Origin: an uncultured Gammaproteobacteria bacterium
GTDB taxonomy: Bacteria > Patescibacteriota > Patescibacteriia > Patescibacteriales > UBA12465
Length of the DNA stretch: 64,000 bases
Reading direction: 5' to 3'
NCBI GenBank assembly: GCA_964470695.1
Contig: CAYYDR010000002.1
Location: forward strand, 200,401 to 264,400
Part shown: positions 32,667-48,946 of the stretch, piece by piece
How the letters are laid out: every line of letters begins with the position of its first letter
Numbering within the stretch: position 1 is the first letter of the stretch
Position numbers and translations under genes: made by a program
The notes under the pieces: model-generated
Told to the model about the DNA's origin: nothing
Seen by the model: the letters and a program-made list of their open reading frames with translations, nothing else
The model's database searches: none

Positions 32667-32755
32667 GGAGAGTTCGCATAGTTGGTCTAGTGCGCACGCC
32701 TGGAAAGTGTGTATACCGCAAGGTATCGAGGGTTCGAATCCCTCACTCTCCGCCA
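32667..32755 (+). tRNA. tRNA-Ser (anticodon GGA at 32702-32704), CCA encoded
   Basis: Acceptor GGAGAGT/ACTCTCC, anticodon arm CACGC-CTGGAAA-GTGTG, long variable arm ATACC-gcaa-GGTAT, and T arm GAGGG-TTCGAAT-CCCTC. The gene ends GCCA. Confidence 0.9.
32735..32753 (+). repeat. 19-bp direct repeat (att, tRNA-proximal copy) cgaatccctcactctccgc
   Basis: Identical to 48928-48946. Confidence 0.9.
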
Positions 32756-32783
32756 AGACAATTTAGTATCGGATAGACCCACG

Positions 32784-32808
32784 AAGCCTCGTATTTACGG
32801 GGCTTTTT
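32784..32808 (+). terminator. Intrinsic terminator after tRNA-Ser(GGA)
   Basis: AAGCCTCG-tattta-CGGGGCTT (one G:U pair) running into T5. Confidence 0.65.
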
Positions 32809-32922
32809 GGTATATTTTAAACGTTACTCCGTTTATTAGACCGTTTATTCCCTATATTAAAATATAGAGAAAAACTGGTATTAAGCATATATTATTGGTA
32901 TAATAAGAAAAATAAAAGCATC

Positions 32923-33300
32923 ATGAAACTTAGACAAACACTTACAACTCTGGCTGTTTTAGCGGGATTAATCGTTGTTCTGGCCAACTGGCAGGTTTGC
33001 TTACCTGATGGCTGTGTTTTTAGTTATCAAGCTCAAACATGCCAAGATGGCAGTTGCTTTAACGAAGGTGTTGGCAGCCATTTGCAAGAAAGATTAGCAT
33101 TTTTAACTGTAATCGCAAGTAATAATTTAATTGGTGGTTTGTTGATTGTAATCATTGCATTTTTTTTATTACTGAATAATAAAGCATTACTTTTAGCCTG
33201 CCATCATAAATTTAGAATAACATTAAAATATTTTTCTCTTGATTATAACTTGTTAAATTTTTTATTTGCCAAGGGGTTACTGCATCCAAAAATTTATTAA
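32923..33300 (+). CDS. Small membrane protein with Cys-rich loop (125 aa)
   Basis: Two TM segments and the loop CLPDGCVFSYQAQTCQDGSCF. There is no homology I can name. Confidence 0.45.
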   Translation: MKLRQTLTTLAVLAGLIVVLANWQVCLPDGCVFSYQAQTCQDGSCFNEGVGSHLQERLAFLTVIASNNLIGGLLIVIIAFFLLLNNKALLLACHHKFRITLKYFSLDYNLLNFLFAKGLLHPKIY

Positions 33301-33371
33301 TAAGTTCGCACAAAACTATCTTTTTTGTAATTGATAGTTTTTTATTTGTGTAATTATTAATAAATTTAAAT

Positions 33372-34388
33372 ATGAATATAAGTAAAAAAGCAAATAAACA
33401 AACATTAACTGGGGTTATTGCTGGAATAGTTTTGGTAATTATATTGGGTTCGATATATTTTGCTATTCAAGCATATAAAGAAAAAATATCGTGGTTGCCA
33501 GTAGAAAATATTGAAGAAAAATCAACTAGTTTTGTAAATTCTGAACTTTTACAAGGTAAGGGCTCGGCTACGGTAAAGGTAACTGGAAAGGAAGGAAATC
33601 TTTATAAGTTAGAAGTTGTCTATAACGGGCAAACTATTAATTCTTTTGTGTCTAAAGATGGTTCAAAGTTTTTCCCACAATCATTGGAAATGATTAAAAG
33701 TGCTCAGGCTGGCAGTCAGGAAAATACTAACAAAACAAACTCTGAAACAGTCGCTGATAATATTGATAAAAAAACCGATAAACCAGTAGTAGAATTATTT
33801 GTTATGAGTCATTGTCCTTATGGTTTACAGATGGAAAAAGGAATTGTGCCAGTTGTAAAAGCCTTGGGGGATAAAATTGATTTCAAGCTTAAATTTACTG
33901 ATTACGCGATGCATGGTGAAAAGGAATTAAAAGAAGAGTTGAACCAGTATTGTATTCAAAAAGAACAACCTAAAAAACTTTTAGCTTATTTGGATGCCTT
34001 CTTAAAAAGTGGCGACTCGGAAACAAGCATTACTGAATCTGGTGTAGATAAAAATAAAATGCTTAGTTGCGTAACTCAAACAGATAAAGAATTCAAAGTC
34101 TTAGAAAATTTTAGTAACAATTCTGGTTTCAAGGGGTCTTATCCTGGTTTTGAGGTTTTTAAAGCGGATAATGCTAAATATAATGTTGGCGGATCTCCTA
34201 CTTTAATTATTAATGGATCACAAAGTGAAAGTGCTAGAGATTCAAAAAGTTTATTAAAATCAATTTGTTCCGCTTTTAATAATCAACCTAAAGAATGTTC
34301 CACTCAACTGTCTGGTGATGCCCCGGCTCCAGGTTTCGGTATTGGCACAGCACCTTCTGGCGGTTCAGGCAGTGGTTGCGGACAGTAA
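33372..34388 (+). CDS. Membrane-anchored thioredoxin-fold protein (single-Cys CPYG motif)
   Basis: N-terminal TM helix; ELFVMSHCPYGLQ; GGSPTLIINGS; and a Gly/Ser tail ending GSGCGQ. Confidence 0.55.
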   Translation: MNISKKANKQTLTGVIAGIVLVIILGSIYFAIQAYKEKISWLPVENIEEKSTSFVNSELLQGKGSATVKVTGKEGNLYKLEVVYNGQTINSFVSKDGSKFFPQSLEMIKSAQAGSQENTNKTNSETVADNIDKKTDKPVVELFVMSHCPYGLQMEKGIVPVVKALGDKIDFKLKFTDYAMHGEKELKEELNQYCIQKEQPKKLLAYLDAFLKSGDSETSITESGVDKNKMLSCVTQTDKEFKVLENFSNNSGFKGSYPGFEVFKADNAKYNVGGSPTLIINGSQSESARDSKSLLKSICSAFNNQPKECSTQLSGDAPAPGFGIGTAPSGGSGSGCGQ

Positions 34389-34448
34389 TTAAATGTATTA
34401 ATCGGGGGTAATGTAAAATTATCCCCGATTAATAATTAGTAGAAATAT

Positions 34449-35660
34449 ATGTTAAATTCAGAAATAATAAGAGCGGACTTCAAAATATTTAATAAAGTAG
34501 GCAATAAAACACTTCCTATATATTTTGATAATGCTAGTATGAGTTTAAAACCGAGGCAAGTGATTGAAGCCATGGATGATTATTATTTTAATTATCCTAC
34601 TGCTGCTGGCCGAAGTTCATATAAATTGGCAGAAGTAACAACAAACAAAATAAAAGAAGTTAGACGTCTGGTCGCTAATTTTATTAACGCCAGTAATGAT
34701 TCGGAAATTGTTTTTGTTAGAAATACCACAGAAGCTATAAATCTTTTGGCTCATTCATTAAAACTCGGTGCTGGCGATATAATCTTAACTACAGATAAGG
34801 AACATAATTCCAATTTAATTCCTTGGCAGATTTTAGTTGAGAAGAAAGGCATTATTCATAAAATCGTTAAATCTAAAAATGATGGCACTTTTGATCTGGA
34901 TAGTTATAAAGAATTAATCAAAGGAGTGAAGTTAGTAGCTATGGTTCATACCTCTAATTTAGATGGTACAACTATTCCTGCTAAAGAGATTATTAAGATT
35001 GCTCACGATAATGGTACTCTGGTTTTGCTAGATGCCGCTCAAAGTGCACCTCATAAAAAGATTGATGTTAGAGATTTGGATGTAGATTTCTTAGCTTTTT
35101 CTGGACATAAGCTATTGGGCCCAACTGGCACTGGTGTTTTATACGGTAAATATAGTTTACTGGAAAAATTAGAACCATTTATAGTTGGTGGCGGTACTGT
35201 CGAGTATTCTACTTATACAGAATATAAAATGTTAAACGCACCTGAAAAATTTGAGGCAGGGTTACAGGATTATGCTGGAATTATTGGTTTAGGTGCGGCA
35301 GTGAAATATCTCGACGCAGTCGGCTTTGAAAATATTAGAGAACAGGAGCTTAAACTTAATCAATATATAACAGAAGAAATAAGCAAAATACCAAGAATTA
35401 AAATTATTGGTCCGCTTGACCCGTCGCTTAGATCGGGAATAATATCATTCTATATTGATGGTCTAGATATGCACCAATTTGCGTTATTGCTTGACGAAAT
35501 GTCCGGTGTTATGATTAGATCAGGACGGCACTGTGTTCATTCTTGGTTTAACGATAAAAAAATTAAAAATTCCGCCAGAGTGTCTTTGTATTTTTATAAT
35601 ACAATGGAAGAGGCGGAAACACTGGTAAGCAGTTTAATAAAAATTATGAAGATTATATAA
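34449..35660 (+). CDS. Cysteine desulfurase, class V aminotransferase (SufS/CsdA-like)
   Basis: PLP-Lys motif FSGHKLLGPTGTGVLYG and catalytic Cys loop RSGRHCVH. Confidence 0.85.
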   Translation: MLNSEIIRADFKIFNKVGNKTLPIYFDNASMSLKPRQVIEAMDDYYFNYPTAAGRSSYKLAEVTTNKIKEVRRLVANFINASNDSEIVFVRNTTEAINLLAHSLKLGAGDIILTTDKEHNSNLIPWQILVEKKGIIHKIVKSKNDGTFDLDSYKELIKGVKLVAMVHTSNLDGTTIPAKEIIKIAHDNGTLVLLDAAQSAPHKKIDVRDLDVDFLAFSGHKLLGPTGTGVLYGKYSLLEKLEPFIVGGGTVEYSTYTEYKMLNAPEKFEAGLQDYAGIIGLGAAVKYLDAVGFENIREQELKLNQYITEEISKIPRIKIIGPLDPSLRSGIISFYIDGLDMHQFALLLDEMSGVMIRSGRHCVHSWFNDKKIKNSARVSLYFYNTMEEAETLVSSLIKIMKII

Positions 35661-35666
35661 AAATTT

Positions 35667-36599
35667 ATGCTATGTATAGTTGCTCTAATAGGGTTCTCGA
35701 TACTTGGTATTTTCAGTGCTACTCATAGAATTTTAGCAAAGGAGGCTCTGGATTGTGTGTTTAGACGAATAACACTAAGACCTTGTAATACTGGTTTTAA
35801 GGAAAAAATAAAAAATAAAATACTAGTCAGGTTAATGAGTCGCTCTGTTTTTGTGGCTCGCTTATTTAACAAACATTTTGAGATTTTTTCTTGGATATTT
35901 TTTATTCTGATGGTCGGCAGTACTTTTTGGGTGGTAAAAGGCGGTTATAATTACTATCTGTATGGTAGTTGTAACGGTTTAAACCAAGCCGGTTTTTGTG
36001 CCTTTGATCCTAAGGGGGAAAATAATAAAGTGACTGATATTAGTCAGCAATGTGGTGCTGTTGAAAAGAAAGAAGAGAATGTGACTTTGGAAAATATTGA
36101 TTTATCAACTTTTCCAACCAAAAATATTAATTCAAAAGATACAGTAGTTTTGATTGGTTGTTATGAATGTGATTACACTAGGAAAGCTTATTCCGATATT
36201 CAGAAATTAGTTAGAGATAAAAAAACTAATTATATTTTTGCCCATTATCCTGCTAAAGAAAATACTAACTATCTGTCAGAAGTCGGTTATTGTGTTTATA
36301 AAGAATACGGAGAGAGATTTTGGGCCTTTAATGATTATTTGTTTACAGTTGATAAAGTGGAAATTTATCAACCTGAATACATTGGAGCAATATTGAAAAA
36401 TTTTGATTTTGACGAGAAAAAAATAAGTGATTGTGTCAGTAGCCCAGAAATTAAGAAAATTGTTGCAGGTCAAGTTAATCAATTAAGAAAAACTCATCTA
36501 TACGGAACGCCAACAGTATTTATAAATGGGAAAGCCTTGGTCGGGCCGAAGCCACTAAGAGTTTACAAGAGTATGCTTAATAAATTTATTATATTTTAA
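35667..36599 (+). CDS. Membrane protein with C-terminal DsbA-like thioredoxin domain (CYEC active site)
   Basis: N-terminal TM segments with Cys pairs; VVLIGCYECDYTRKAY; YGTPTVFINGK. Confidence 0.6.
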   Translation: MLCIVALIGFSILGIFSATHRILAKEALDCVFRRITLRPCNTGFKEKIKNKILVRLMSRSVFVARLFNKHFEIFSWIFFILMVGSTFWVVKGGYNYYLYGSCNGLNQAGFCAFDPKGENNKVTDISQQCGAVEKKEENVTLENIDLSTFPTKNINSKDTVVLIGCYECDYTRKAYSDIQKLVRDKKTNYIFAHYPAKENTNYLSEVGYCVYKEYGERFWAFNDYLFTVDKVEIYQPEYIGAILKNFDFDEKKISDCVSSPEIKKIVAGQVNQLRKTHLYGTPTVFINGKALVGPKPLRVYKSMLNKFIIF

Positions 36600-36603
36600 A
36601 TAT

Positions 36604-38535
36604 ATGGATAATTGCTGTGATAGTTGCTCTGATAAAAAAAAGAGCGAAATTAAAACAAAAACAAATAAAATTTGGTGGCTAGTAATGGCTTTATTGTTTA
36701 TTGCCCCTCTTGAAATACTGTCGCTCTTCTCAATTGACCTAGCTATATGGATTAAATTACCACTTTTTATCGGTATTATTTTTATTTTTGGTAGGGCAAC
36801 TATTATTAGCGGTTTTAAAAGTCTATTTAAATTAAATTTCTCAGATATAAATCTGTTGATGACTATTGCTATTATTGGAGCCATATTTTTGCAAAAATAC
36901 GAAGAAGCCGCTATCATCGTTGTTTTGTTTAGTTTGGGTGAGGCTCTTGAAGAATATGGTTTAGAGCGAAGTCGACAGGCTTTAGAAAAATTGGTTAATA
37001 ATTTTCCGAAAACAGCTGAACTTAAAGCTGGAAATAGAATCGTAAGCATCGATCAAATAACAATCGGGGAACTTATAATTATCAGGCCTGGAGATCAGGT
37101 TGGCTTAGATGGTGAAGTGGTATATGGGGGTAGTCTAGTTGACGAATCAACGATTACTGGGGAACCGCTACCAAAAAGCAAAAGCCTTGGTGAGAAAATA
37201 TACGCTGGGTCAATTAACATCGGCGGTTATTTAGAAGTTAAAGTTTTAAAAGAATCTAAGGATTCAACTTTAAACAAAATTGTGCAGTTAACAGAAAATT
37301 CTTTAAAGAGAAAGGCTGATTCACAAAAGTTTATAGAAAAATTTGCTCGTTATTATACTCCGGCCGTTACTGCCTTTGCAGTTATTCTATTTATTATTCC
37401 GGTTTTATTTTTTGATGGATCTGTAGCTTTTTGGTTAGTTCAATCGTTAACCATTCTTTTAATATCTTGTCCCTGTGCTTTAGTAATCTCTACTCCTATT
37501 TCAGTTTTTTCTGCGATTGGAAATGCCAGTCAAAAAGGAATTTTAGTGAAAGGCGGTAAAGCCATCGAAGACTTGGCTTGTATTACTGAGATTGGTTTTG
37601 ATAAAACTAAAACACTTACAGTTGGCAAGCCCGAAGTAACTGATATTATTCCCTTTAATGGTTTTACTAAAGAAGAAGTCTTAAGTTGTTCGGCTGGGTT
37701 AAGTGAATATTCTGAGCACCCGTTGTCTCAAGGAATTGTTGAAAAAGCTAAAAAGGATGGAATAAATATTCACGGCTTCAAAAATTTTCAATCAGTCCAA
37801 GGGCAAGGCATTGTTGGTGAATGTTTAGTTTGTACTGATATAAAACATTGTTTAGGTAAAATAAATTTGATTGATAATCAGATTGGTAAAATGGAGTTAA
37901 GCGAACTGATGGCTAAAGAAAAAGAAAGACTGGAAAAAGAAGGCAAGACGGTTGTATTTCTGGGTGATGAAAAAGCCATAAAAGGACTAATAGCCTTGTC
38001 TGATAGAATAAAGGATGAAAGTAAACAAGTAATAAAAGAGTTACAGGAACAAAAAATAAAATGTTTTATGGTGACAGGTGACAATGATGGAGCTGCTCAG
38101 TATGTTTCGAGCGCTCTTGGTATATCAGAAATACATTCAGGAAAGTTACCGGAAGATAAGGCGGAGCTCATCATTAATAAATCAAAAAATAATATAAAAG
38201 TAGCCATGGTTGGTGATGGTGTAAATGATGCACCTTCTTTAGCTGGAGCCAGTGTTGGTATTGCTATGGGCTCTCTTGGTTCTGATATTGCCATTGAAAC
38301 TGCTGATATTGCTTTAATGAATGATGATCTTAAGTTAATTCCTTATATAATTAAATTAAGTAAAAAAACGGTAACTAAAATTAAATTTAATACTTATTTT
38401 GCTCTTGGCACGAAATCGATTTTTCTGATATTAGCAGTTATGGGTATAAGTAATTTATCATTAGCTATATTTGCCGATGTGGGTGTAACCGTAATCGTGG
38501 TAGTTAATGGTTTGAGTTTGTATAGATTTAAATAA
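36604..38535 (+). CDS. P1B-type heavy-metal-translocating ATPase (Cd/Zn/Pb-like, CPC motif)
   Basis: N-terminal MDNCCDSCSD, TGEPLP, SCPCALVISTP, phosphorylation site FDKTKTLT (DKTKT, not DKTGT), SEHPL and GDGVNDAP. Confidence 0.88.
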   Translation: MDNCCDSCSDKKKSEIKTKTNKIWWLVMALLFIAPLEILSLFSIDLAIWIKLPLFIGIIFIFGRATIISGFKSLFKLNFSDINLLMTIAIIGAIFLQKYEEAAIIVVLFSLGEALEEYGLERSRQALEKLVNNFPKTAELKAGNRIVSIDQITIGELIIIRPGDQVGLDGEVVYGGSLVDESTITGEPLPKSKSLGEKIYAGSINIGGYLEVKVLKESKDSTLNKIVQLTENSLKRKADSQKFIEKFARYYTPAVTAFAVILFIIPVLFFDGSVAFWLVQSLTILLISCPCALVISTPISVFSAIGNASQKGILVKGGKAIEDLACITEIGFDKTKTLTVGKPEVTDIIPFNGFTKEEVLSCSAGLSEYSEHPLSQGIVEKAKKDGINIHGFKNFQSVQGQGIVGECLVCTDIKHCLGKINLIDNQIGKMELSELMAKEKERLEKEGKTVVFLGDEKAIKGLIALSDRIKDESKQVIKELQEQKIKCFMVTGDNDGAAQYVSSALGISEIHSGKLPEDKAELIINKSKNNIKVAMVGDGVNDAPSLAGASVGIAMGSLGSDIAIETADIALMNDDLKLIPYIIKLSKKTVTKIKFNTYFALGTKSIFLILAVMGISNLSLAIFADVGVTVIVVVNGLSLYRFK

Positions 38536-38557
38536 ATATTATTTAGAAAATATTACA

Positions 38558-39913
38558 TTATTCATTTCTCAGATTTAAATTTTTATCTTTTAATGTAATC
38601 TTGCTTCTCAAATTGGCCAGTAACTCCCTTTTTTCAACAGAACTTCCTTCTTTAAGCACGTATCTAGCATAAACACGCATATCAACTGCGGGCTTATGTT
38701 TTTTGTGAGGCTGTTTTTCCCCAAGTATCATATTTTGAAATTTGTTTAATCGCTCAACTTCCATTTCCATTCTGGTCAGTATTCCGAGTTCGTTCATATC
38801 TACTTTATCTATTATTTTTAATAATTCAGTTATTAATTCTTCTTCTCTAATATATTTATTTTTACAGAACCTATCTCTGGCCCTCGAACAACCATAATAA
38901 ATATAATGAGCCGTTGTTCCATCTTTAAGTTGTTTGTATTTATCTTCCGCCGATATGCCTGATCCGCAACAGCCGCAAGTAATCAGTTTTGTGAAAGCGA
39001 ATTCCTTGTTTTCCCTTTGAATATTATCTCGTTTAAGTTGGACTTTGGTCTTCTCAAATAATTCCTGGGTAATTAGTGGCTTATGTTTTCCTTGATACCA
39101 ATTGCCACTTCCTCTCGGTTTTTCAAATACGCCATAATAGAAAGGATTATCTAGTATTCTGTATATGCCGCTTAAAGTTAATGGTTTATTACCTCTAGTA
39201 TAAAAATTTAGCTCATGCCTGAGCCAATGATATAGTTTCCGTCCACTATATTTTTTATAGGCCACCATCTCAAACATTTGTTTTATAGCAGGGGATCGTA
39301 GCGGATCAACTATAACCTGGCATTTCTTATCCATTCTATTTTGATTTAAATAGCCGAGTGGCGCTCGCCCAACCCATAATCCCATTTCTGCTCTTGTTCT
39401 TAGTCCACGCTTTACATTAACGCCTCTATTATCATTTTCTAATTTGGCCTGTGATCCTAAAATCATCAGCAGAAATTTTTCATTAGGATTATTGGTAAAT
39501 CTTTGGCTGAAGGTGCGAATTTCTTTTAATATCCCTTGGTCTATCAAATCTACGATAGATCCTAGATCTCCAGCGTTTCTAGATATGCGATCTGGCGCCC
39601 AAGTTAGGATAGCATTGAATTTACCTTGTCTTATATCACTCACTAATTCGTTAAAGATTTTGCGTTGGCCAGTCTCTTTAGCGCTGTGTGATTCTCGCCT
39701 AATTTCGATAATATTTAGATTCTCTCGAGTGGCTAGATCAAGCATCTCTTTAATCTGGCTATCAATGGATAGTACCTGTCTTTCCTCGGATTCCGTGGAC
39801 TTTCGGGCGTAAAGGCAGTATTTGAGCGTTTCTTGCGGCAAGACCCCTAGATTAGCCCCATTTTGGCCTTCTAGGGTCGTTTTGGGGCTTAAAACTGTGC
39901 TTGTTTGGTTCAT
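38558..39913 (-). CDS. Large serine recombinase (resolvase domain + recombinase domain + zinc ribbon + coiled coil)
   Basis: YARKSTESEERQVLSIDSQ (catalytic Ser), DRISRN, Zn ribbon CGCCGSG...YYGCS...C. It is homologous to 59605-60984. Confidence 0.88.
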   Translation of the reverse strand: MNQTSTVLSPKTTLEGQNGANLGVLPQETLKYCLYARKSTESEERQVLSIDSQIKEMLDLATRENLNIIEIRRESHSAKETGQRKIFNELVSDIRQGKFNAILTWAPDRISRNAGDLGSIVDLIDQGILKEIRTFSQRFTNNPNEKFLLMILGSQAKLENDNRGVNVKRGLRTRAEMGLWVGRAPLGYLNQNRMDKKCQVIVDPLRSPAIKQMFEMVAYKKYSGRKLYHWLRHELNFYTRGNKPLTLSGIYRILDNPFYYGVFEKPRGSGNWYQGKHKPLITQELFEKTKVQLKRDNIQRENKEFAFTKLITCGCCGSGISAEDKYKQLKDGTTAHYIYYGCSRARDRFCKNKYIREEELITELLKIIDKVDMNELGILTRMEMEVERLNKFQNMILGEKQPHKKHKPAVDMRVYARYVLKEGSSVEKRELLANLRSKITLKDKNLNLRNE

Positions 39914-40034
39914 ATGGTTATAGTTGTTTAACCAATGAATGACGCAATTTGGCGGGGAAGTCCAGGCCTCAGAAGTAGATAAACTGTAGGTAACTTTTCT
40001 TTACTTTTAGGCTATTTTGAGTTATATTTTAAGT

Positions 40035-40207
40035 GCTAAACCGTAACCAAATTTCGTGAAGTCGCACCCATTATTGGGTGGCCTTGGCTTATTTGCATAC
40101 AGGAACGGACACACCGACCCTTATGCAAGTAGGCGTCTTCACGGACACTGATTGCGGTTTAGCGACCGGGTCGGGTGTCCGTTTTTGTATTTACGGACAT
40201 CGGACAT
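40035..40207. repeat. Repeat- and inverted-repeat-rich spacer upstream of the recombinase
   Basis: (A)CGGACA occurs 4 times in direct orientation (40105, 40141, 40193, 40200) and once inverted (40176-40182). Long-range complements are GCTAAACCG 40035-43 / CGGTTTAGC 40155-63, CGTGAAGTCGC 40055-65 / GCGTCTTCACG 40133-43, and ACGGACACACCGACCC 40105-20 / GGGTCGGGTGTCCGT 40168-82 followed by T5. Confidence 0.5.
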
Positions 40208-40232
40208 TCATAACTTATTAATTAAATAATCT

Positions 40233-40568
40233 ATGAAAAAATGTCCATTTTGTTCCGAAGAAATTCAGGACGAGGCCATTAAGTGCAAGCATTGCGCCTC
40301 AGATTTAGTGGTCACCGTAGTCAACGGTGAAAAAATAAACAAACTAACCTGCAAGCAATGTGGCGGAGAAATGGTAAGAAGAAAAATTTATAGCAATATT
40401 GGCTCGTCTCTGCTTATTTTTTTCTTAGGATTTATTTTCGCCCCTTTTAGTAACGTTATAGGCGGAGCATTATTCATTGTTGGTTTGATTTTATTCATTA
40501 TTAGAATAGCATCCCCAAAAAGATATTGGGTATGTAATAAGTGTAGCTACAAGATTGAGAAGTGGTAA
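40233..40568 (+). CDS. Double zinc-ribbon membrane protein (111 aa)
   Basis: CPFC...CKHC and CKQC...CNKC flank two TM helices. Confidence 0.55.
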
Positions 40569-40577
40569 TAAAATAAT

Positions 40578-41003: not shown

Positions 41004-42330
41004 ATATTTTTACCCGCTTCTTGCCGGTATACTTTTCCCAACGGTTGAGTATCACCTCGGCGTAGACTGGAGATTTCTCCATTAAAAAGCATTTCCGGCC
41101 TAGCATGGTCGAGGCAATAAGCGTACTACCGGATCCGCCGAATGGTTCAAGAACCAGTTGGTCGCGCTTGGTTAGAACTTTGATATAGGGAATGAGGATA
41201 TTTGTCGGTTTCGTTCCAAAGATTATTCCTTGACCAGACGATTTTTCATCTGCGGCCACATGTTCAATGAAGTCGGTTGGGCAGTATTTTTTGCCAGCCT
41301 CATAATTTTCCCATTGCGGTTTACCAGAAATGGCGAAAAGAGCAGTTTCATATTCATTCTGTAAGCCTTCACCCTCACCTTCTAGATTATACTCGATATT
41401 AGCATCCTCAGTGCACCCGACAACGGCTATGTCATATTTATTGAAGAATTTATACTTGGCGGCAAAGCCCTGGACTCGATTATTGAGATGCCACACAATC
41501 ATATTCTTTACTTTCCAGTGTTTTTCCATTTCATTCCATATTGTCCGGATGTTCTTCCAGTTTTCGTAGACGATGATAGAGGCACTATCGGCTTGAACTT
41601 TAGCCACACCGCACATCCATAATTCGGTGAAGTTATTGGGCAGGGAGTCGGTTTCTAAGTAACGCCTGTTCTTCTTAGCGCCAAAGCCAGTGGTTGCTTC
41701 GCCATGACGTGATTTGCCGTGTAAGTAATCTAATAAATAAGGGGGATCTGTTAATATTAGCGAAAATTTATTCCCATCAGCCAGCTTTAGCATGTCCGCT
41801 TCAATCGTGCTATCGCCGCACATCAGTCTCGATCCATCTAAATCATAGATATCGCCTTTTTGGATATTGATTTCATTAATATTCAATTTCTCTAGCTCCT
41901 TATTCAGGTCAAAAATTTCCTCAGTCGGATCTTCCTCAAAGATTTTATCTAATTCTTCAGAATCAAATCCGACATCTTTCAGAAATTCTTCATCAAATTC
42001 AGCTAATAGAGTAAGATCGAATTCGCCTTGATTTTTGTTCAGTCTGAGATTGAGCTCCTTTTCTTTTTCTATATCTGGAATGTTCACATAACAAACTGGC
42101 ACTGTCTCAAAGCCCAGTTCTTTAGCCATCGCCCAGCGGAAGTGGCCACCGATGATGATATTCAGGCGCTCTGGAGCTGAATTAACTACAAATGGGTCGA
42201 CTAACCCAAAGCGTTTGATACCTTCTTTTAGCTGTTCAGCCGCTTCTTTATCCCATTTTCTAGGATTGTACTCGGCTGGTTTTAACTCGTTGATTGGCAG
42301 GTATGTGACCTGTAGTTTTTCTTTGTTCAT
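40993..42330 (-). CDS. ParB-like nuclease domain fused to N6A/N4C DNA methyltransferase (beta class)
   Basis: ParBc block LKPAEYNPRKW...IIIGGHFRW. Methylase motif IV is LILTDPPY and motif I is LEPFGGSGSTLIA. Confidence 0.85.
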   Translation of the reverse strand: MNKEKLQVTYLPINELKPAEYNPRKWDKEAAEQLKEGIKRFGLVDPFVVNSAPERLNIIIGGHFRWAMAKELGFETVPVCYVNIPDIEKEKELNLRLNKNQGEFDLTLLAEFDEEFLKDVGFDSEELDKIFEEDPTEEIFDLNKELEKLNINEINIQKGDIYDLDGSRLMCGDSTIEADMLKLADGNKFSLILTDPPYLLDYLHGKSRHGEATTGFGAKKNRRYLETDSLPNNFTELWMCGVAKVQADSASIIVYENWKNIRTIWNEMEKHWKVKNMIVWHLNNRVQGFAAKYKFFNKYDIAVVGCTEDANIEYNLEGEGEGLQNEYETALFAISGKPQWENYEAGKKYCPTDFIEHVAADEKSSGQGIIFGTKPTNILIPYIKVLTKRDQLVLEPFGGSGSTLIASTMLGRKCFLMEKSPVYAEVILNRWEKYTGKKRVKIYEV

Positions 42331-42373
42331 AGATTTATGAATTAATTATTAAGCCATAAAATAGTTAATAAAT

Positions 42374-42438
42374 AAAAAAATCCGAGAGAAATTCAAAAAC
42401 TCTTAAAACATAAAAGATTTGAATCTCTCTCGGATTTT
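42374..42438. terminator. Long A-run/T-run flanked hairpin (bidirectional terminator-like) in the methylase leader
   Basis: ATCCGAGAGAAATTCAAA / TTTGAATCTCTCTCGGAT pair at 17 of 18 positions with a 20-nt loop. A7 lies on the left and T4 on the right. On the minus strand the hairpin is followed by T7 and sits 44 nt upstream of the ATG. Confidence 0.55.
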
Positions 42439-42562
42439 CTAGAGCATCTATCTCCCCCGAAAGAATAAAATAAAAATATATTTGACTAAATAATTCCGCA
42501 CGTTCCCCCTGAGTGTGCTTGAATAGTTAGGGAACTACAGATAAAGAACGATTGATACCTTT

Positions 42563-42591
42563 ATTATAGTACGAAATCAAAAAGTCTACAA
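42563..42591 (-). promoter_or_regulatory. Sigma70-type promoter (minus strand) for the ParB-MTase operon or a leader RNA
   Basis: The reverse complement reads TTGTAG (42591-42586), 17-nt spacer, TATAAT (42568-42563). Confidence 0.45.
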
Positions 42592-42685
42592 TAGCATTTT
42601 TTTATTTAAAATTAGTTAAATTATTTTATAAATAAATTTAAATTAGTAAATTCTGTAAATTGCGTTTAATCTGTTTAAAATATTA

Positions 42686-42714
42686 TTGACATTTCTTTAT
42701 TTAGGGTGTATATT
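42686..42714 (+). promoter_or_regulatory. Sigma70-type promoter of the LexA-like operon
   Basis: TTGACA 42686-42691, 17-nt spacer, TATATT 42709-42714. Confidence 0.6.
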
Positions 42715-42735
42715 ATGGTTAGTAATAAAAAATAT

Positions 42736-43371
42736 ATGCATAAAAACCAAGAGAGCTTGATTGAGTTGGCTAAAAAAAAGGATATTTCAAAAATGAGTTA
42801 TCGGGAAATAGGCCGGGAGGTAGGTATAGCAAATCCGCAGACTGTTGTTCATCATCTTAATCAATTAAAGAGGATGGGGCTTTTGTACCTTGGTTCTGAC
42901 AATAAGCAAAAAGTAGCCAAAAATGAACCGTTCGTGACCGACAATCTATTTAATATTCCTATTCTAGGGTGTGCCAACTGCGGTCAGGCCTTAGAGTTAG
43001 CGCAACAGAATCTTTTAGGCTTTTTGAAAATTTCTCCTAGGATATTGGAGCGTAAGAGGCCGGATCAGCTTTATATTGTTAAAGCGGTGGGCGAATCAAT
43101 GAACCAGGCTCGAGACGTTAAAGGTGGTCCTATAGAAAATGGTGATTATGTTATAGTTGACTACGGAAACAAGGATCCGCAAGACGGGGATTATGTTTTA
43201 TCAGTCATTGATGGTGCGGCTAATATAAAAAGATTTTATAAGAACAGGAAAGAAATCAGACTAATCTCTGAATCCAGTTTAGGTATTCCACCGATTATTT
43301 TACACGAAGATGATTTAGAGGCTCACGGTTATTTGGTAAATGGTGTCGTAGTCAGAGTGATTAAGAATTGA
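42736..43371 (+). CDS. LexA/CI-like repressor (wHTH + S24 peptidase)
   Basis: N-terminal HTH MSYREIGREVGIANPQTVVHHLNQLKRMG, S24 Ser VKAVGESM, and Lys ANIKRFY. The ATGs at 42706/42715 lie inside the -10 element, so ATG 42736 is the first plausible start. Confidence 0.8.
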   Translation: MHKNQESLIELAKKKDISKMSYREIGREVGIANPQTVVHHLNQLKRMGLLYLGSDNKQKVAKNEPFVTDNLFNIPILGCANCGQALELAQQNLLGFLKISPRILERKRPDQLYIVKAVGESMNQARDVKGGPIENGDYVIVDYGNKDPQDGDYVLSVIDGAANIKRFYKNRKEIRLISESSLGIPPIILHEDDLEAHGYLVNGVVVRVIKN

Positions 43372-43381
43372 TTATAAAAAT

Positions 43382-43624
43382 ATGTCTAATTATCATGTAT
43401 CAAAAGATAAAGATACTGGCGACTGGCGAATAAAACGTGAAGGTGCTGATCGCGCCAGTGGCTTTGCTGACACTCAAAAAGAAGCTGAGAAAATTGCTAA
43501 AGAATTATCTGGCAATTCTGGCGGTGGTGAAGTCAGAATCCATGGTCGAGATGGAAAAATTCGCGACAGCGATACTGTAGCTCCTGGCAATGACCCGTGC
43601 CCTCCAGTTGATAAGAAAAAATAA
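43382..43624 (+). CDS. DUF2188-family small protein
   Basis: YHVSKDKDTGDWRIKREGADRASGFADTQKEAEKIAKEL...VRIHGRDGKIRDSDT...PPVDKK matches the DUF2188 pattern as I recall it. Confidence 0.7.
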   Translation: MSNYHVSKDKDTGDWRIKREGADRASGFADTQKEAEKIAKELSGNSGGGEVRIHGRDGKIRDSDTVAPGNDPCPPVDKKK

Positions 43625-43629
43625 TTAAT

Positions 43630-46600
43630 ATGAAATGGATTGATGTAGGAGATATAAAAAATTGGGTTAACGGTAAACAAAGGCATTGTGCTCAAACGTT
43701 GCCAGAGCTTATTCGTAGGCTTATTTTTGCTACGTCCTCGACGATAGAAGAAATCAATTTTCCAAGTGGTGATAGTGTAGCAAATGGAGGCTGGGATGGA
43801 TATTTAAAAACACCAAATATTTCTCCTTTATTTCCATCAGGCATTTCTGTTTGGGAAATTGGCACAAAAAAAACTCCGGGCAAGAAGGCTGATGCTGATT
43901 ATTTAAAAAGAACTACTAATCCGTTAGGAGTTAATAAAGGTGATACTAGTTTTGTTTTTGTAACTCCATATACTTGGCAAAAGGGCAAGGAGTGGGAAAA
44001 AAATAAAAGGCTATTAAATGAATGGAAGGATGTTCGAGTCGTGTCTTCTGATCATATTGAATTGTGGCTTGAATCGGCTCCGGCAGTAGCGTTATGGCTT
44101 GGTAGACAAATAAAGGGACTATCTGATCAGATTCGTGATATTGAAGGCTTTTGGGAGGAGTGGGCTGTTGCCACCAATCCGGAAATGACGGCAGAACTTG
44201 TTTTAGGAGGAAGAATCAAAGAAGCAAAACACATACAAAATTGGATAAAAGATAAAGCGTCTATTGTAGAGGTTAGAGGAGATTCGCCTGATGAGCCATT
44301 CGCTTTTTTTTATAGTGCAGTTTCAACTCTTCCAGAAGCCGAAAAAATACAAGTTTTTTCACGTTGTATTGTTGTTGAAGATATAAAACAATTTCGTACT
44401 TGTGTTACTACTTTTCAAAACCCTCTCATTATTGCTGCTCCATCTGAGTGCAGAGATGCGGCCGGATTAGCGGTAAAAAATGGGCATCATGTATTTTTAA
44501 GCGCCGATTCAAAATCACTAGATTTTCGTTCTAATCTTTTGCAGCTTTCTCGCCCCAGGCGCGAGATAGTGGAAGAATGTTTAAAAAAATCTGGCCTCTC
44601 TGAAAAAGATTCAAGAAGTCTTGCGAGAGATTTTGGTAGAAGTATCCCCGTTCTGAGACGTCATCAATTTGTGGCAAGCGCTAAAATACCTGAATGGGCT
44701 AGCGAAGACTCATCTAAAACATTGATTCCATTATTGTTTGCCGGTGCATGGGATGAAAATAAAGAAGGCGACAGACAACTTATCGAGCTATTAGCAGGCG
44801 TTTCTTACGACGAATATATTAAATTATTATCTCCGCTCCTTTTAATTGATGATTCCCCAATTAGGAAAGTCGGCAGTGTTTGGATACTAAAATCTCCCCT
44901 TGATGCTTGGTACATAATTGCTCTAAATGTTACTGATGACAATTTGAATCTTTTCGAACAAGCAGTGGCTGCTGCTTTAACAAAAACTGATCCTAAATAT
45001 GATTTAGAAGCGGAAAAACGCTGGATGGCTAGTGTATACGGAAAATCTAATCCATACTCTGAGTGGGTTAGAGAAGGTTTGGTTGAATCACTAGTTCTAA
45101 TCGCCGTTTATGGCAATCGTTCGCCTTTTATCAAAACATCTACTCAGATATTTGCAGACAACGTAGTTAAAAATATTCTTGCCAGTGCAAATAAATGGGA
45201 GATGTGGGCGTCTATCAAGGATGTGACTCCGCTGTTAGCAGAAGCCTCTCCTGACGCTTTTATGAGTGCTGTAGAAAAAATCATAATTGAAGATAAGGGA
45301 CTTTTAAAAGACCTTCTATCAGACGATGGAACAATGTTTGGCGAGTGTCGTCATGCTGGTTTGCTTTGGGCGCTCGAATCAATTTCTTGGAGTCCGGAAC
45401 ATTTTTCTCGTGCTGTAAATATACTGTATGAGTTATCAAATATAGATTTAGGAGGCAAATGGAGCAATCGCCCCATAAATAGCCTGAAAGATATTTTTGC
45501 GCCAGGACTACCACAAACTCATGCTGATCCGAATCAACGCTTATTAGTTTTGAAATCATTTATAGAGAAAGACCCTAAAACTACTTGGAGATTTGTTAAA
45601 GATTATTACGGAATGGGATCAATGAGCGAGTCCCATATGTTTAGGTGGCGTGATACCGGCGGGAGCCGTCGTGGTTTAGAGCACGAGAGTCCAGATGATC
45701 ACTCTGTTTACATTAAAGGGTTATTGCCATTATTTACTGAATTAGCTTGTAAAAAAGAAAATATAATTTATGCCACTGATGATTTCACTCGTCTATCGGG
45801 AGATATAAGAGAGTATCTTTTAAAAACGTTAGAAAAAGAAACTATCAATTCTTTTTCCGTGGAAGAAAGATTGGAAATTTTTCATAATGTAAGAGAAGCT
45901 TTAAATTGGGTTAATAGTTATGGTAAAGATGAATTCCGCAAGCAAATCCCTGCGTTAGAAAATATATATAAAAAATTCACTCCTGAAAATATTTTAGACA
46001 AATATGGTTGGCTAATAAGTGATCCTTGGCCGAGATTACCTCAAGGAGAGCCAAAAGATTATGAGGCTAAAAATGACACCGTAAAAATCGCTCAGGAAGA
46101 AGCAGCTAGAGAAGTTTTAAATCAAGTTTCGGCAAAAGACATAGTTTATTATTCTACAACAATAGGATATCCAGGAGTTTTTGGACGCATACTTGGTAGA
46201 ATTGTAAATAATGGCGAAGAAGAAAACAAGATATTTGATGAGATGATCAAGGATTACGCAAAAAATTCAATATTTATTCAAGGTTATGTTACTGGTAGGT
46301 TTGAAAAAAATGGTGATGGTTGGCTAGAGCAGCAAATTACAAGATTAAAAGAGTTAGGCGTCTATTCTGCTGAAGCTTGCGCTTTGTTATATCTTGGGAG
46401 AAAAGAGAATGCTGAAACATGGTCTATGATTAGTAAATATGGGGAAGACGTGGAAGACTCTTACTGGAGACAAGCCACTGGATATTCTGTAGATAACAAA
46501 AAGGAAGACGCATATATTGCAATAGAAAAACTGTTGGATGTTGAAAGACCGGCAGCAGCCCTTAAAATTGCTGGCGACTCTGATATACTGGTGCCAAGCC

Positions 46601-47415
46601 AGCTATTGCAAAGACTCCTTCAGGATTTTGTAAAAATTGAAAATAATGAACCACGGGATAGAACAATGGATGTATATTATTTAGGAAATATATTTAATCA
46701 ACTATATCAAAGAAATGATTTGCCATTAGAGGTTGTAGCAAAACTCGAATGGCCATATGTTTCTTTATTTGATGAATTTAAACGTTATACAACTTTTTCA
46801 ACAGCATTACATCGAAATTTGCAAACAGACCCTTTATTATTTGCCCAACTAATACCTTTTTTATATAAATCAAGTAACAAAGAATTTGATAAAGATAATA
46901 AATTAGATAAAAAATCTCAAGAAAGGATGTGGCATGTCGCTCATGATTTATTAGATTCCTGGTATCTCCTACCTGGATTAGAGGATGATGGAAATTTGGA
47001 CGAAGAAAAATTAAAAAAATGGATAGTTGATGCTCGCAGTAAATGCCAAGAAACTGGTCATGTTACTGGATGTGATATTCAAATTGGATTTATATTAGCA
47101 CATTCTCCTAGCAATCTAGATGGAACATGGCCACATGCGGCCGTTTGCAATATTATAGAGTTTTTAGATAATGAGACCATTGATAGACATATTGAAAATG
47201 AAATATATAATAGCAGGGGCGTTACTTCAAGAGGGTTAAATGATGGAGGTGCACAAGAAAGAGACTTAGTTCAAAAATATAAAAAAATGAGCGATGACGC
47301 TAAAGCTAAGTGGCCGCGAACCAGTAGATTGCTATTGAATATTTCTAAATCTTATGAGCTCGAGGCAAAAAGACATGATGTCGATTCTGATTTGCATGAT
47401 TTAAGCTGGAAATAA
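43630..47415 (+). CDS. 1261-aa protein of unknown function: N-terminal alpha/beta domain (possible PD-(D/E)xK-like) followed by a long helical-repeat body; no NTPase motifs found
   Basis: The start is 5 nt after DUF2188. The N-terminus reads LPELIRRLI...SGDSVANGGWDGYL...SVWEIGTKK...DADYLKR. I could find no Walker A (GxxxxGK[ST]) and no DExx helicase box by eye. Confidence 0.75.
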   Translation: MKWIDVGDIKNWVNGKQRHCAQTLPELIRRLIFATSSTIEEINFPSGDSVANGGWDGYLKTPNISPLFPSGISVWEIGTKKTPGKKADADYLKRTTNPLGVNKGDTSFVFVTPYTWQKGKEWEKNKRLLNEWKDVRVVSSDHIELWLESAPAVALWLGRQIKGLSDQIRDIEGFWEEWAVATNPEMTAELVLGGRIKEAKHIQNWIKDKASIVEVRGDSPDEPFAFFYSAVSTLPEAEKIQVFSRCIVVEDIKQFRTCVTTFQNPLIIAAPSECRDAAGLAVKNGHHVFLSADSKSLDFRSNLLQLSRPRREIVEECLKKSGLSEKDSRSLARDFGRSIPVLRRHQFVASAKIPEWASEDSSKTLIPLLFAGAWDENKEGDRQLIELLAGVSYDEYIKLLSPLLLIDDSPIRKVGSVWILKSPLDAWYIIALNVTDDNLNLFEQAVAAALTKTDPKYDLEAEKRWMASVYGKSNPYSEWVREGLVESLVLIAVYGNRSPFIKTSTQIFADNVVKNILASANKWEMWASIKDVTPLLAEASPDAFMSAVEKIIIEDKGLLKDLLSDDGTMFGECRHAGLLWALESISWSPEHFSRAVNILYELSNIDLGGKWSNRPINSLKDIFAPGLPQTHADPNQRLLVLKSFIEKDPKTTWRFVKDYYGMGSMSESHMFRWRDTGGSRRGLEHESPDDHSVYIKGLLPLFTELACKKENIIYATDDFTRLSGDIREYLLKTLEKETINSFSVEERLEIFHNVREALNWVNSYGKDEFRKQIPALENIYKKFTPENILDKYGWLISDPWPRLPQGEPKDYEAKNDTVKIAQEEAAREVLNQVSAKDIVYYSTTIGYPGVFGRILGRIVNNGEEENKIFDEMIKDYAKNSIFIQGYVTGRFEKNGDGWLEQQITRLKELGVYSAEACALLYLGRKENAETWSMISKYGEDVEDSYWRQATGYSVDNKKEDAYIAIEKLLDVERPAAALKIAGDSDILVPSQLLQRLLQDFVKIENNEPRDRTMDVYYLGNIFNQLYQRNDLPLEVVAKLEWPYVSLFDEFKRYTTFSTALHRNLQTDPLLFAQLIPFLYKSSNKEFDKDNKLDKKSQERMWHVAHDLLDSWYLLPGLEDDGNLDEEKLKKWIVDARSKCQETGHVTGCDIQIGFILAHSPSNLDGTWPHAAVCNIIEFLDNETIDRHIENEIYNSRGVTSRGLNDGGAQERDLVQKYKKMSDDAKAKWPRTSRLLLNISKSYELEAKRHDVDSDLHDLSWK

Positions 47416-47422
47416 AAAATAT

Positions 47423-47908
47423 ATGACATGGTACAAAAAGTATTTAACCGAATATAAAAAAGAAATTATCGTATCAGTAACATTTACTATTATCTTTGCC
47501 ATATTTTTATCGTTGTGGCATTATGCACTTGGAAAGAGTTTTGTCTGGAAAGAAATTGACCCAATACCAAAACCACAAGAATTTGTCAGATTTATTTATA
47601 GCGCACTTGTTTTTGCAACATTCGGTGCTTTTTTATATTGGATTAAATTTTATAAATTTTTACATTCAGTAATTGTCAGGGAGCTAGGAGCCTGGAAATT
47701 GTATAGAGACATCAAGTCGGTTATTTGGACTTCATTGATTTTAGTGATGTATTTTTTTGTTGTCCCGAAAGTTATTGATTTTCTAAACAGTACTATTTCA
47801 ATTATTTATAATTTATTCTTTTTTATTGTTTATTTATTACCGCCACTCCTCGTGTCAGTATTAATAATTATATTTGTAATTTATTTAATAAGGAAATCTA
47901 ATAAATAA
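47423..47908 (+). CDS. Four-TM small membrane protein (161 aa)
   Basis: The start is 7 nt after the upstream stop. Four hydrophobic helices are present and the C-terminus ends in a basic tail (IRKSNK). Confidence 0.65.
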   Translation: MTWYKKYLTEYKKEIIVSVTFTIIFAIFLSLWHYALGKSFVWKEIDPIPKPQEFVRFIYSALVFATFGAFLYWIKFYKFLHSVIVRELGAWKLYRDIKSVIWTSLILVMYFFVVPKVIDFLNSTISIIYNLFFFIVYLLPPLLVSVLIIIFVIYLIRKSNK

Positions 47909-47912
47909 AAGT

Positions 47913-48557
47913 ATGGCTAATTTTCATCTTAACTTAGAAGATAGTATTGGCATTTCTGAATCAGTTACTGCTCGATCTGAGTCAAATTACTTAATCATTA
48001 AGAATAAAGAAATTTGTTCTAGTATATTAAGAATGCCAGAGCCAGGCGAGAACGACTTGATTGATTTTTTCGTTTCAATTCACTTAGTTATGGAAATAAG
48101 TCTTAATACTTTTTTTCGTGTAATATCACTGAATGAAATGCAAAAAAGAGTAGATCCCTTGGCCGTAATAAAAAATTTAGACGGGATTAATTTTATAGAT
48201 AAAACTATTTTATTTATTTATAATTCCCATTTTAATTTTAATGGAGATGTAGATAGCGCTGACCGATACCATTCTATTATTGGCCAACTAAGGCAATTCT
48301 CGGAACCGAGAAATAAGTTATTGCACGGACATTCAATAAGTACAATTTTTCATCAGGACACAAATAGACATTCAGATACTAGAAATATTATTACGCGAGA
48401 AAGGATGAATAGTCAGATAAGTTTATATAAAAGTGTTATGGATGGATTAAAATTCTATTTTGATTGTCTGCGGTCATCATTTAGCGTTAGCGGAAAAGAC
48501 ACTATAAAAAGAGAATATTTGGACGATGGATTTCTTAATATAAATAGTAATGATTAG
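47913..48557 (+). CDS. 214-aa protein with HEPN-type Rx4H motif (candidate RNase effector)
   Basis: The start is 4 nt after the upstream stop. The motif is SEPRNKLLHGHS (R133...H138, nt 48309-48326), in the R-N-x-x-x-H form common in Abi-type HEPN domains. Confidence 0.6.
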   Translation: MANFHLNLEDSIGISESVTARSESNYLIIKNKEICSSILRMPEPGENDLIDFFVSIHLVMEISLNTFFRVISLNEMQKRVDPLAVIKNLDGINFIDKTILFIYNSHFNFNGDVDSADRYHSIIGQLRQFSEPRNKLLHGHSISTIFHQDTNRHSDTRNIITRERMNSQISLYKSVMDGLKFYFDCLRSSFSVSGKDTIKREYLDDGFLNINSND

Positions 48558-48782
48558 TGATTATATATTTAAGCCCTCTAAAATTGAGTATATATTTATT
48601 ATTTTGTAAATTATTAGCCAAAATAATCAATAATCCCTTATAAATCGCTAAAAGCTCTGCAGTGTCTCATTTGTCTCATTTACCCGACCCACTTACTTAT
48701 TTTGGGCTCAAAAAAAGACGCTCAAAATTCCTTATAAACCTCGCTAATGGTGGTATCTAACCCGGTTAGCCCGCTAACGAAA

Positions 48783-48810
48783 ATAACCTCACCTGCGTGA
48801 GGTTATTTTT
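48783..48810 (+). terminator. Intrinsic terminator ending the LexA-like operon
   Basis: ATAACCTCAC-ctgc-GTGAGGTTAT running into T5. Confidence 0.8.
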
Positions 48811-48815
48811 GTTAA

Positions 48816-48946
48816 TGTTGTAGTTGGGGAGGGATTCGAAAGCCGGAGGCGATGCGCACTTGTGCGCCGCCGAGGCCGGGTCGGGGCGCTTGCTTTTCGC
48901 TGAGCGTAGCGAAAGCGAAAAGCTTAGCGACCGTGACCGAATCCCT
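48816..48946 (+). ncRNA. GC-rich, strongly structured element of unknown identity abutting the island end (candidate ncRNA or cis-regulatory/att-associated structure)
   Basis: A closing helix GAGGGATTCG 48819-28 / CGAATCCCTC 48928-37 encloses two hairpins. The first is GGCG-at-GCGCA-CTTG-TGCGC-CGCC (48838-61). The second is GCTTTTCGCT 48882-91 / AGCGAAAAGC 48904-13. The element is flanked by terminators on both sides and is very GC-rich for this genome. Confidence 0.35.
48928..48946 (+). repeat. 19-bp direct repeat (att, distal copy; displaced original tRNA-Ser 3' end)
   Basis: cgaatccctcactctccgc is identical to 32735-32753. It continues ACAT, so there is no CCA. Confidence 0.9.

Follow-up and report, generated by a model that had tools for sequence, protein, structure and literature searches.

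We describe a mobile island at the 3′ end of a tRNA-Ser(GGA) gene in an uncultured member of the Patescibacteria (assembly GCA_964470695.1; contig CAYYDR010000002.1, positions 200,401–264,400, a stretch of 64,000 nucleotides referred to here as the window). Comparison with an island-free allele places the island at window positions 32754–48774, a length of 16,021 bp. We consider it likely that the island is one phage-derived element, that it was inserted at the tRNA by its own large serine recombinase (LSR1), that it holds a slot for cargo genes, and that the GC-rich unit beyond its right end, which resembles the RtT repeats of Escherichia coli in architecture, was in place before it arrived.

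Island boundaries and the empty-site allele

The empty site is carried by L003, a 2.3-kb contig from another metagenome (ENA ERZ27284374) that was retrieved via the DsbA-like protein encoded upstream of the tRNA. This contig aligns with the window at 31121–32762 (99.0% identity) and at 48771–49484 (99.2%), with no sequence between these segments, and its tRNA runs straight into the sequence found from window position 48775 onward (...CTCCGC|TAACG). The order in L003 is the tRNA (...CTCTCCGC), TAACG, a terminator hairpin, a GC-rich block ending in a second copy of a tRNA-derived 19-mer, ACAT, a second terminator, and ArsP. That tRNA-Ser(GGA) hosts a mobile island at its 3′ end had been proposed in a first-pass annotation of the window, which suggested looking for empty-site alleles in related genomes; L003 is such an allele, and together with the gene content of the island it upholds that proposal. 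The occupied junction at the right end is unbroken in two further contigs, L216 and L217, from SRR137233xx runs, and the site is therefore polymorphic between populations.

Alignment of the junctions defines the attachment core. The left and right attachment sites in the window read cactctCCGC|CAAGACAATTT (attL) and GGTTAGCCCGC|taacgaaaataacc (attR), the host site taken from L003 reads cactctCCGC|taacgaaaataacc (attB), and only CCGC is common to all three. These four bases are the final two acceptor-stem bases followed by the discriminator and C74, and they place the crossover 6–13 nt downstream of the T arm, in which the first-pass annotation had located the core. A common core of this length is the signature of a serine recombinase, not of a tyrosine integrase that duplicates a segment of the tRNA.

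An exact 19-bp repeat, CGAATCCCTCACTCTCCGC, had been taken to delimit a 16.2-kb island. The repeat itself is real (0 of 100 shuffles matched), with its first copy at 32735–32753 as described and its second at 48938–48956, 10 bases away from the 48928–48946 originally given. However, both copies are present in L003, spaced 182 bp apart in an allele without the island; the 19-mer therefore is not the island boundary, and the right end, at 48774, falls 164 bp before the second copy. Had the element been bounded by this repeat, with crossover in the T arm and the distal copy representing the displaced tRNA end, the empty site would join the tRNA to ACATAAAATAACCC; the join read in L003 is to TAACGAAAATAACC. 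Exact copies at 32735 and 48938 do form a pattern typical of tRNA-targeting tyrosine-integrase islands, but no Phage_integrase domain was found in any open reading frame (ORF) of at least 75 aa in the island, and a similar GC-rich unit in another contig, L084, is joined at CCGC to the same recombinase arm. Such an explanation is thus extremely improbable, and the second 19-mer is part of a pre-existing unit that was not made by insertion of the island.

The weight placed on L003 raises the question of whether it might instead be a deletion derivative or assembly chimera, with the 16 kb being ancestral. It is a single short contig; yet its junction is precise, with tRNA and trailer intact, and the 4 nt shared between the ends are too short for a homologous deletion or for an assembly join at k = 119. 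The nearest species representatives identified by a GatA genome scan, L004 (a Patescibacteria metagenome-assembled genome, GatA 75% identical) and L005, retain the order gatC–gatA–DsbA–tRNA-Ser(GGA) and have no such island after the tRNA. Composition of the island is also foreign: its GC content is 35.1%, as compared with 40.8% in the core, and its tetranucleotide correlation to the core is 0.87–0.92, as compared with 0.93–0.96 for core control chunks. These differences accord with the first-pass claim that the interval is richer in AT than its surroundings; the cargo stands at 32.8% GC, and the segment encoding LSR1 and a ParB-N/N6_N4 DNA methyltransferase fusion (ParB-MTase), at 39.1%, is near the core. 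We give almost no credence to a deletion or chimera.

Conserved arm and variable cargo slot

LSR1 contains a resolvase catalytic domain (PF00239, 4.5e-20, residues 34–179) with a YARKS motif in the translation, and, C-terminal to it, PF07508 (Recombinase, 1.5e-11) and PF13408 (Zn_ribbon_recom, 6.7e-9). As the first-pass annotation had observed, this intact-looking gene lies 5.8 kb from the tRNA, behind a block of thiol and metal cargo genes. Two origins had been offered for that arrangement, a tandem or composite element and the capture of cargo between attachment site and integrase; comparative data fit the second.

Relatives of LSR1 in viral contigs (n = 52, 44–74% identity) commonly occur in the order ParB-MTase, helix-turn-helix (HTH) protein, LSR, with ParB-MTase kept upstream of the other two in most. 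For 14 of the 52, a tRNA gene is located 120 bp to 4.7 kb downstream of the recombinase gene, oriented so that its 3′ end points toward the LSR stop codon. The sequence against tRNA-Ser in L164, L168, L169, and L170, whose recombinases are 64–72% identical to LSR1, is homologous to the left end of the island: the arm beside the tRNA reads CAAGACAATTTAGTATCGGATAGACCC in the window, ATGGACAATTTTTTATCGGCGTGACC in L164, AGAGACAATTTATTATCGGAGTCAAC in L168, ATTAAGAACTTAGTATCGGATGTGACC in L169, and ACCGAATTTTTAGTATCGGCAAGACCC in L170. The motif TATCGG is found exactly 13 nt from the tRNA end in each of these and in L084 (6/6), where the arm stands beside an RtT-like unit. The distance from the arm to the LSR stop codon varies, at 879 bp in L164, 2858 bp in L168, 1713 bp in L169, 4663 bp in L170, and 5805 bp in the window. 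The arm of L084, 94% identical to that of the island over 81 nt, is followed by ArsR, thioredoxin, ArsP, DsbD, and a cation diffusion facilitator (CDF) transporter, and then by a remnant of the LSR1 3′ end (63 nt, same orientation); these cargo genes differ from those of the window, though the thiol/metal theme is alike. An arm that remains at the tRNA, combined with a slot of varying length, indicates one element with a variable cargo slot between attachment site and integrase rather than a tandem pair.

Under a tandem origin, two separate elements would have accreted at one tRNA, the first carrying the cargo (32754 to about 38500) and the second the LSR (about 38500 to 48774). The internal position of LSR1, the GC contrast between cargo and LSR–ParB-MTase segment, and a Logan contig break 90 bp past the LSR stop are compatible with this, as is a second, smaller island in the window (island 2), in which the LSR stop is only 99 bp from its tRNA. 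However, no second core or arm was found inside the island, including in the 22-bp AT-rich spacer at the cargo/LSR junction; the family arm is at the tRNA and not beside the LSR, in relatives with slots of 0.9–4.7 kb; and all 16 kb are missing as one piece in L003. Logan breaks at 38468, 43175, and 32744 were considered as structural signals and rejected: contigs neighboring at 43175/43219 abut within a gene, 32744 is off the junction, and breaks other than that past the LSR fall in coding sequence or the tRNA gene. We regard accretion of two elements as quite improbable, and favor a single element with captured cargo.

The derivation of the element from phage is suggested by its relatives. 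A large terminase is encoded between the HTH gene and the LSR in L164 and, more weakly, in L166, an interval of 664 bp in the window. When seven relatives were pooled for a PHROG scan, three terminases were returned together with helicases and a polymerase. Neither a large terminase nor virion structural genes were identified in the island by Pfam or PHROGs, and it is therefore a defective phage-derived island. A motif resembling the left arm at 52208 lies in coding sequence, without a core or second motif, and was dismissed as a chance match. An intact attP (the joined site of the free element) was looked for in L167 and not found.

The GC-rich unit beyond the island and its likeness to RtT repeats

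The final 19 nt of the unit downstream of attR (...CUCUCCGC) are the second 19-mer, and part of that 19-mer, CGAATCCCTC, is perfectly complementary to GAGGGATTCG, the 5′ end of the unit. In both minimum free energy and centroid structures, GAGGGAUUCG pairs with CGAAUCCCUC to close a multi-hairpin fold, and the + strand is favored (−75.1 kcal/mol, z −4.9, vs. −62.8 on the − strand). The tRNA trailer is repeated after the unit; its two copies are identical at 30 of 49 aligned positions, with shared blocks AAAATAACC and TTTTTGTTA, whereas the 19-mers are identical at 19/19. A third copy of the 19-mer, with two mismatches, is the 3′ end (59488–59506) of tRNA-Ser(TGA) (59419–59506).

A comparable unit was located in L084 by an nhmmer search with the left arm of the island. 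Preceded by a tRNA-like fragment and a terminator, it extends from GGGGGATTCGAA to AATCCCTGCCTCTCCGC, with the + strand favored by 10 kcal/mol. The LSR1-type arm begins immediately at its CCGC end, such that the unit, and not a tRNA, is the junction partner. The window unit was not found in L004 or L005, and its 5′ end returned zero matches in an exact scan of viral contigs. A metagenome scan for ArsP returned 80 loci without tRNA-Ser(GGA) synteny, L084 being the only one with a GC-rich unit. Interpretations of the unit as a transfer-messenger RNA (tmRNA), a two-piece tmRNA, or a tRNA with an insertion were rejected (ARAGORN reported nothing, and the 5′ strand of a T stem is missing close to the 3′ end), as was a miniature inverted-repeat transposable element or terminal inverted repeat as the primary reading, given that the right end matches the tRNA at 19/19. 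A 79-aa ORF over the unit is spurious; gene callers called no ORF there.

Genuine RtT repeats provide a basis for comparison. The tyrV–rttR locus of E. coli K-12 contains 178-bp units. Each opens with GGGGAAGGAT and closes with AATCCTTCCCCCACCACCA, which repeats the 3′-terminal 19 nt of tRNA-Tyr, and the tRNA trailer comes next; the GGGGAAGGAT start pairs with the tRNA-derived end in a 10-bp closing helix. A gapped-pattern scan additionally recovered L220, which contains four tandem units at a 186-bp period (9899–10800) after a 5′-truncated tRNA-Ser(CGA)-like gene, flanked by prophage portal, capsid, and TerL (large terminase) genes and a P4-type tyrosine integrase. Among three distinct sequences in L220, 7 of 38 hairpin pairs change on both sides, and two of the units exceed the RF00391 threshold (54.0 and 53.8 bits vs. 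45; E. coli controls score 133–137 bits). Joint alignment shows covariation of the closing helix with tRNA identity, A–U in E. coli and G–C in L220, and the window unit has the tRNA-Ser version. L220 is itself an example of RtT units tied to tRNA-Ser and not to tRNA-Tyr. A further candidate from the same scan, L219, was rejected, because its alignment to the model is confined to a T-arm minihelix adjoining a tyrosine integrase.

The window unit is like RtT (RF00391) in five respects—its position, its length (~130 nt), the 19-nt tRNA end, the closing helix, and a period of ~180 bp—and also in its GC-rich hairpin interior and the repetition of the tRNA trailer. It differs in that its interior is not alignable and neither RtT model recognizes it, in being a single unit as opposed to an array, in its association with tRNA-Ser in place of tRNA-Tyr, and in occurring in another phylum. 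It is accordingly RtT-like by architecture, with a sequence that the RF00391 model does not detect, and it may be transcribed.

An alternative is that the unit is not a functional RNA but the fossil attachment site left by an earlier element, perhaps of the tyrosine-integrase kind, whose crossover in the T loop duplicated the tRNA end. The 19-nt block spans the T loop to the 3′ end, as this would require; tRNA 3′ fragments exist inside the related elements L170 and L188; a toxin–antitoxin islet in L004 is flanked by repeats of tRNA end plus trailer, at what is a hotspot site; and the unit fails the RtT models. Conversely, the 19-mer is identical throughout beside a trailer that has diverged, folding is strong and favors one strand, and both layout and period match genuine RtT units that show compensatory hairpin changes. 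We find a fossil site somewhat unlikely, though deserving of more weight than the other alternatives; moreover, it concerns origin, and is compatible with an RtT-like description.

The mode of action of rtT RNA has been described as unknown (bioRxiv 10.1101/2024.07.17.603846). A speculative and rather unlikely possibility is that RtT-type units, rather than being peculiar to the enterobacterial tyrT locus, are widespread structured cassettes that reproduce the 3′ end and trailer of a tRNA and thereby serve as extra, tRNA-sparing landing sites for both serine and tyrosine integrases that target tRNAs. This would fit the junction of the L084 unit with an LSR arm, the 19/19 identity beside a diverged trailer in the window, and the presence of RtT units after a prophage-disrupted tRNA-Ser in L220; if true, it would be the first functional or evolutionary rationale for RtT repeats.

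Proposed integration model, gene content and wider locus

In the integration model that we favor, LSR1 would bind an element site composed of a P arm, ...GGTGGTATC-N17-CCGC, and a P′ arm, CCGC-N13-TATCGGATAGACC, and a host site consisting of the tRNA 3′ end and trailer. Strand exchange would take place within CCGC and create no long repeat; the tRNA would stay whole, and would gain an encoded CCA from the first two bases of the element, which in the window do contribute the final CA. The RtT-like unit and ArsP would be displaced 16 kb downstream. The boundaries, core, arm, and slot are observed directly, as is the unit in the empty site; catalysis by LSR1, the exact crossover dinucleotide, and any present-day mobility of the element are inferred. 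The repressor and methyltransferase are in keeping with a lysogeny-type lifestyle. With its terminase lost, the element can presumably no longer package itself.

Several observations weigh against parts of this reading. The empty site is represented by only one contig, a short one (2.3 kb), and an exact scan of viral contigs did not find the excised circle or attP junction, GGTTAGCCCGC|CAAGACAATTTAG. The dyad symmetry of attP is weak; all three dinucleotides in CCGC are possible as the crossover, and two of them, CG and GC, are palindromic, which is unusual for LSRs; and the contigs of relatives stop before the right arm, making comparison of right arms impossible. With respect to the unit, only one other of its kind (in L084) was found. 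The Rfam RtT model gave no match at E ≤ 10 in window positions 48700–49050 (RF00391 gathering threshold 45 bits), and a custom RtT model, for which the units of E. coli and L220 were used, reached 11.1 bits (E 0.34) with an alignment limited to the ends; the L084 unit was likewise undetected by the RtT models, and no Rfam family matched either unit. No promoter consensus was found for the unit, though a terminator is present.

Prophages and islands integrated by LSRs are exemplified by the phiC31, Bxb1, TP901-1, and SPbeta types. The element described here shares with these a three-domain recombinase, a short core between unrelated arms, and an integrase near one end of the element; it differs in targeting the extreme 3′ end of a tRNA and not a protein-coding gene or intergenic site, in having up to 5.8 kb of cargo between integrase and attachment arm, and in its Patescibacteria host. 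Serine integrases of streptococcal integrative and conjugative elements (ICEs) use protein-coding targets (rumA, mutT, hsdM, traG) with direct repeats of 2–8 bp, and in some of these ICEs one or several coding sequences lie between the integrase gene(s) and the target (PMC4701971). The short repeats and the intervening coding sequences are thus alike, whereas the ICEs carry conjugation modules and insert within the target gene, and the island carries phage-type genes and leaves its target intact. Of the 23 attB sites of tyrosine integrases in Mycobacterium, 16 overlap a tRNA or tmRNA gene, and a phage-inducible chromosomal island (PICI) with a serine integrase is not integrated at a tRNA gene (PMC10654092). 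Phage mv4 integrates at the 3′ end of a tRNA-Ser by means of a tyrosine integrase (bioRxiv 10.1101/2023.11.06.565760); P4-like and mv4 islands resemble the present one in the class of target, in preservation of the tRNA, and in a site that gathers successive insertions, but here the island lacks a tyrosine integrase and its insertion duplicated no tRNA-derived identity block. An LSR with a short core is already well known; a tRNA 3′-end target and a long modular slot are less common.

Table 1. Coordinates of the island, its attachment sites, and neighboring features in the window
Feature	Position	Strand	Basis
tRNA-Ser(GGA), integration target	32667–32755	+	ARAGORN; Rfam tRNA 54.6 bits
19-mer, copy 1: T-loop 3′ half, T-stem 3′ strand, acceptor 3′ strand, discriminator, C74	32735–32753	+	
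attL common core CCGC; crossover must fall in these 4 bases	32750–32753	+	attL/attR/attB comparison
Element arm P′: CAAGACAATTTAGTATCGGATAGACCC, then hairpin and T-run; TATCGG at 32767–32772	32754–32815	+	
Cargo slot	32816–38557	+	Pfam; 32.8% GC; missing from L003 with whole island
125-aa membrane ORF, cargo	32923–33300	+	
Thioredoxin-like, cargo	33372–34388	+	Pfam
Class-V cysteine desulfurase, cargo	34449–35660	+	Pfam
DsbA-like, cargo	35667–36599	+	Pfam
P-type ATPase (heavy-metal-type), CPC motif, cargo	36604–38535	+	Pfam
LSR1, large serine recombinase, 451 aa	38558–39913	−	PF00239, PF07508, PF13408; phrog_95 integrase 6e-61
Zinc-ribbon membrane ORF, at large-terminase position of relatives	40233–40568	+	
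HTH protein resembling small terminase subunit	40578–41003	−	Pfam HTH; PHROG terminase small subunit families; syntenic in relatives
ParB-N/N6_N4 DNA methyltransferase fusion	40993–42330	−	Pfam, PHROGs
S24-peptidase LexA/CI-like repressor	42706–43371	+	Pfam, PHROGs
DUF2188 protein	43382–43624	+	PF09954; matches candidate defense family PDC-S16
1261-aa protein, no Pfam domain	43630–47415	+	phrog_18693 (unknown function) end to end, 8e-168
Two ORFs without family match: 161-aa membrane protein, 214 aa	47423–48557	+	
Element arm P, ending in attR core CCGC (48771–48774)	48730–48774	+	L003 rejoins window at 48771
Host trailer and terminator of tRNA-Ser(GGA), outside island; abuts tRNA in empty allele	48775–48825	+	
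RtT-like unit, 131 nt, 65% GC, outside island	48826–48956	+	Present in L003
Second terminator, diverged copy of tRNA trailer	48961–48990	+	Terminator scan
Island 2: LSR2	59605–60984	−	
Island 2: 81-aa ORF			
Island 2: 622-aa protein			Weak CHAT-domain match

The gene calls of the first-pass annotation (LSR, ParB-MTase, small-terminase-like HTH protein, LexA-like repressor) hold against Pfam and PHROGs (Table 1). As called, LSR1 has 29 N-terminal residues more than LSR2, whose start aligns with LKYCLYARKS, and the true LSR1 start codon may be further downstream. A DsbA-like thioredoxin gene at 31880–32653 is part of the core, just upstream of the tRNA; with this gene in the core and two thioredoxin/DsbA-like genes in the cargo, the island adds paralogous rather than new functions. 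Elsewhere in the window, positions 1–8000 include several stretches of 100–250 nt above 60% GC, and 1-kb windows reach 0.51–0.53 GC.

Island 2 (~3.9 kb) is bounded by a 13-bp direct repeat, CTCTCCGCAGATT, at 59499–59511 (the end of tRNA-Ser(TGA) and its trailer) and 63437–63449. Its recombinase is homologous to LSR1 (34% identity, E 5e-57), as the first-pass annotation had stated. Past its right end, window 63437–63517 is 84% identical (E 5e-17) to 83 nt of L004 (8722–8804) that form the trailer directly after tRNA-Ser(GGA); relative to L004, everything from 32754 to 63436 falls between the end of that tRNA and its trailer. The segment 48775–59506, bounded by two tRNA-Ser 3′ ends, may represent an older third insertion or a rearrangement, though its composition is like that of the core (0.979).

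L004 contains a 1.24-kb islet at 8730–10045 encoding a RelB antitoxin, a YafQ/ParE toxin, and an ORF of unknown function. The islet is flanked by direct repeats of ~90 nt that consist of a tRNA-Ser 3′-end fragment and trailer, and the fragment, GTCCCACCCTCTCCGC, recurs in L084 at 8970–8985. L084 also has an LSR2-like gene (52% identity) at 4012–5553, in addition to the unit and arm region at 8960–13135; both element types are present, in an order unlike that of the window. The island 2 repeats, the L004 trailer match, and the L004 islet indicate that tRNA-Ser 3′ ends in this clade are a layered integration hotspot. Viral contigs may also hold two LSR genes of the LSR1 family (L170/L171, L177/L185, L186/L191, L197/L199, and L174, where the two are convergent and adjacent), which echoes the two LSR islands of the window. 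Fragments of tRNA 3′ ends unlike the adjacent tRNA occur 60–80 nt inside the element in L170 (GTTCGAATCCCATACCCTCTA) and L188 (GGTTCGAATCTCACCCTCT); these may be relics of earlier hosts or integrations.

For a serine recombinase acting at a tRNA-Ser 3′ end in the poorly studied Patescibacteria, these results precisely delimit an attB/attP pair and supply a naturally empty site, and they define an arm motif, TATCGG at +13, across a family of at least 50 related recombinases; att pairs of this type are raw material for integration tools and for the annotation of mobile DNA in reduced genomes. They also counsel caution: foreign DNA can be flanked by a perfect tRNA-derived repeat that is no insertion scar but an RtT-like unit already in place. 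The occurrence of an RtT-like architecture outside the Proteobacteria, together with the LSR junction in L084, offers a lead on the unexplained RtT repeats. Finally, a swappable slot between attachment site and integrase that has repeatedly held thiol/redox and metal genes points to a way in which ultrasmall bacteria may pass such traits to one another.

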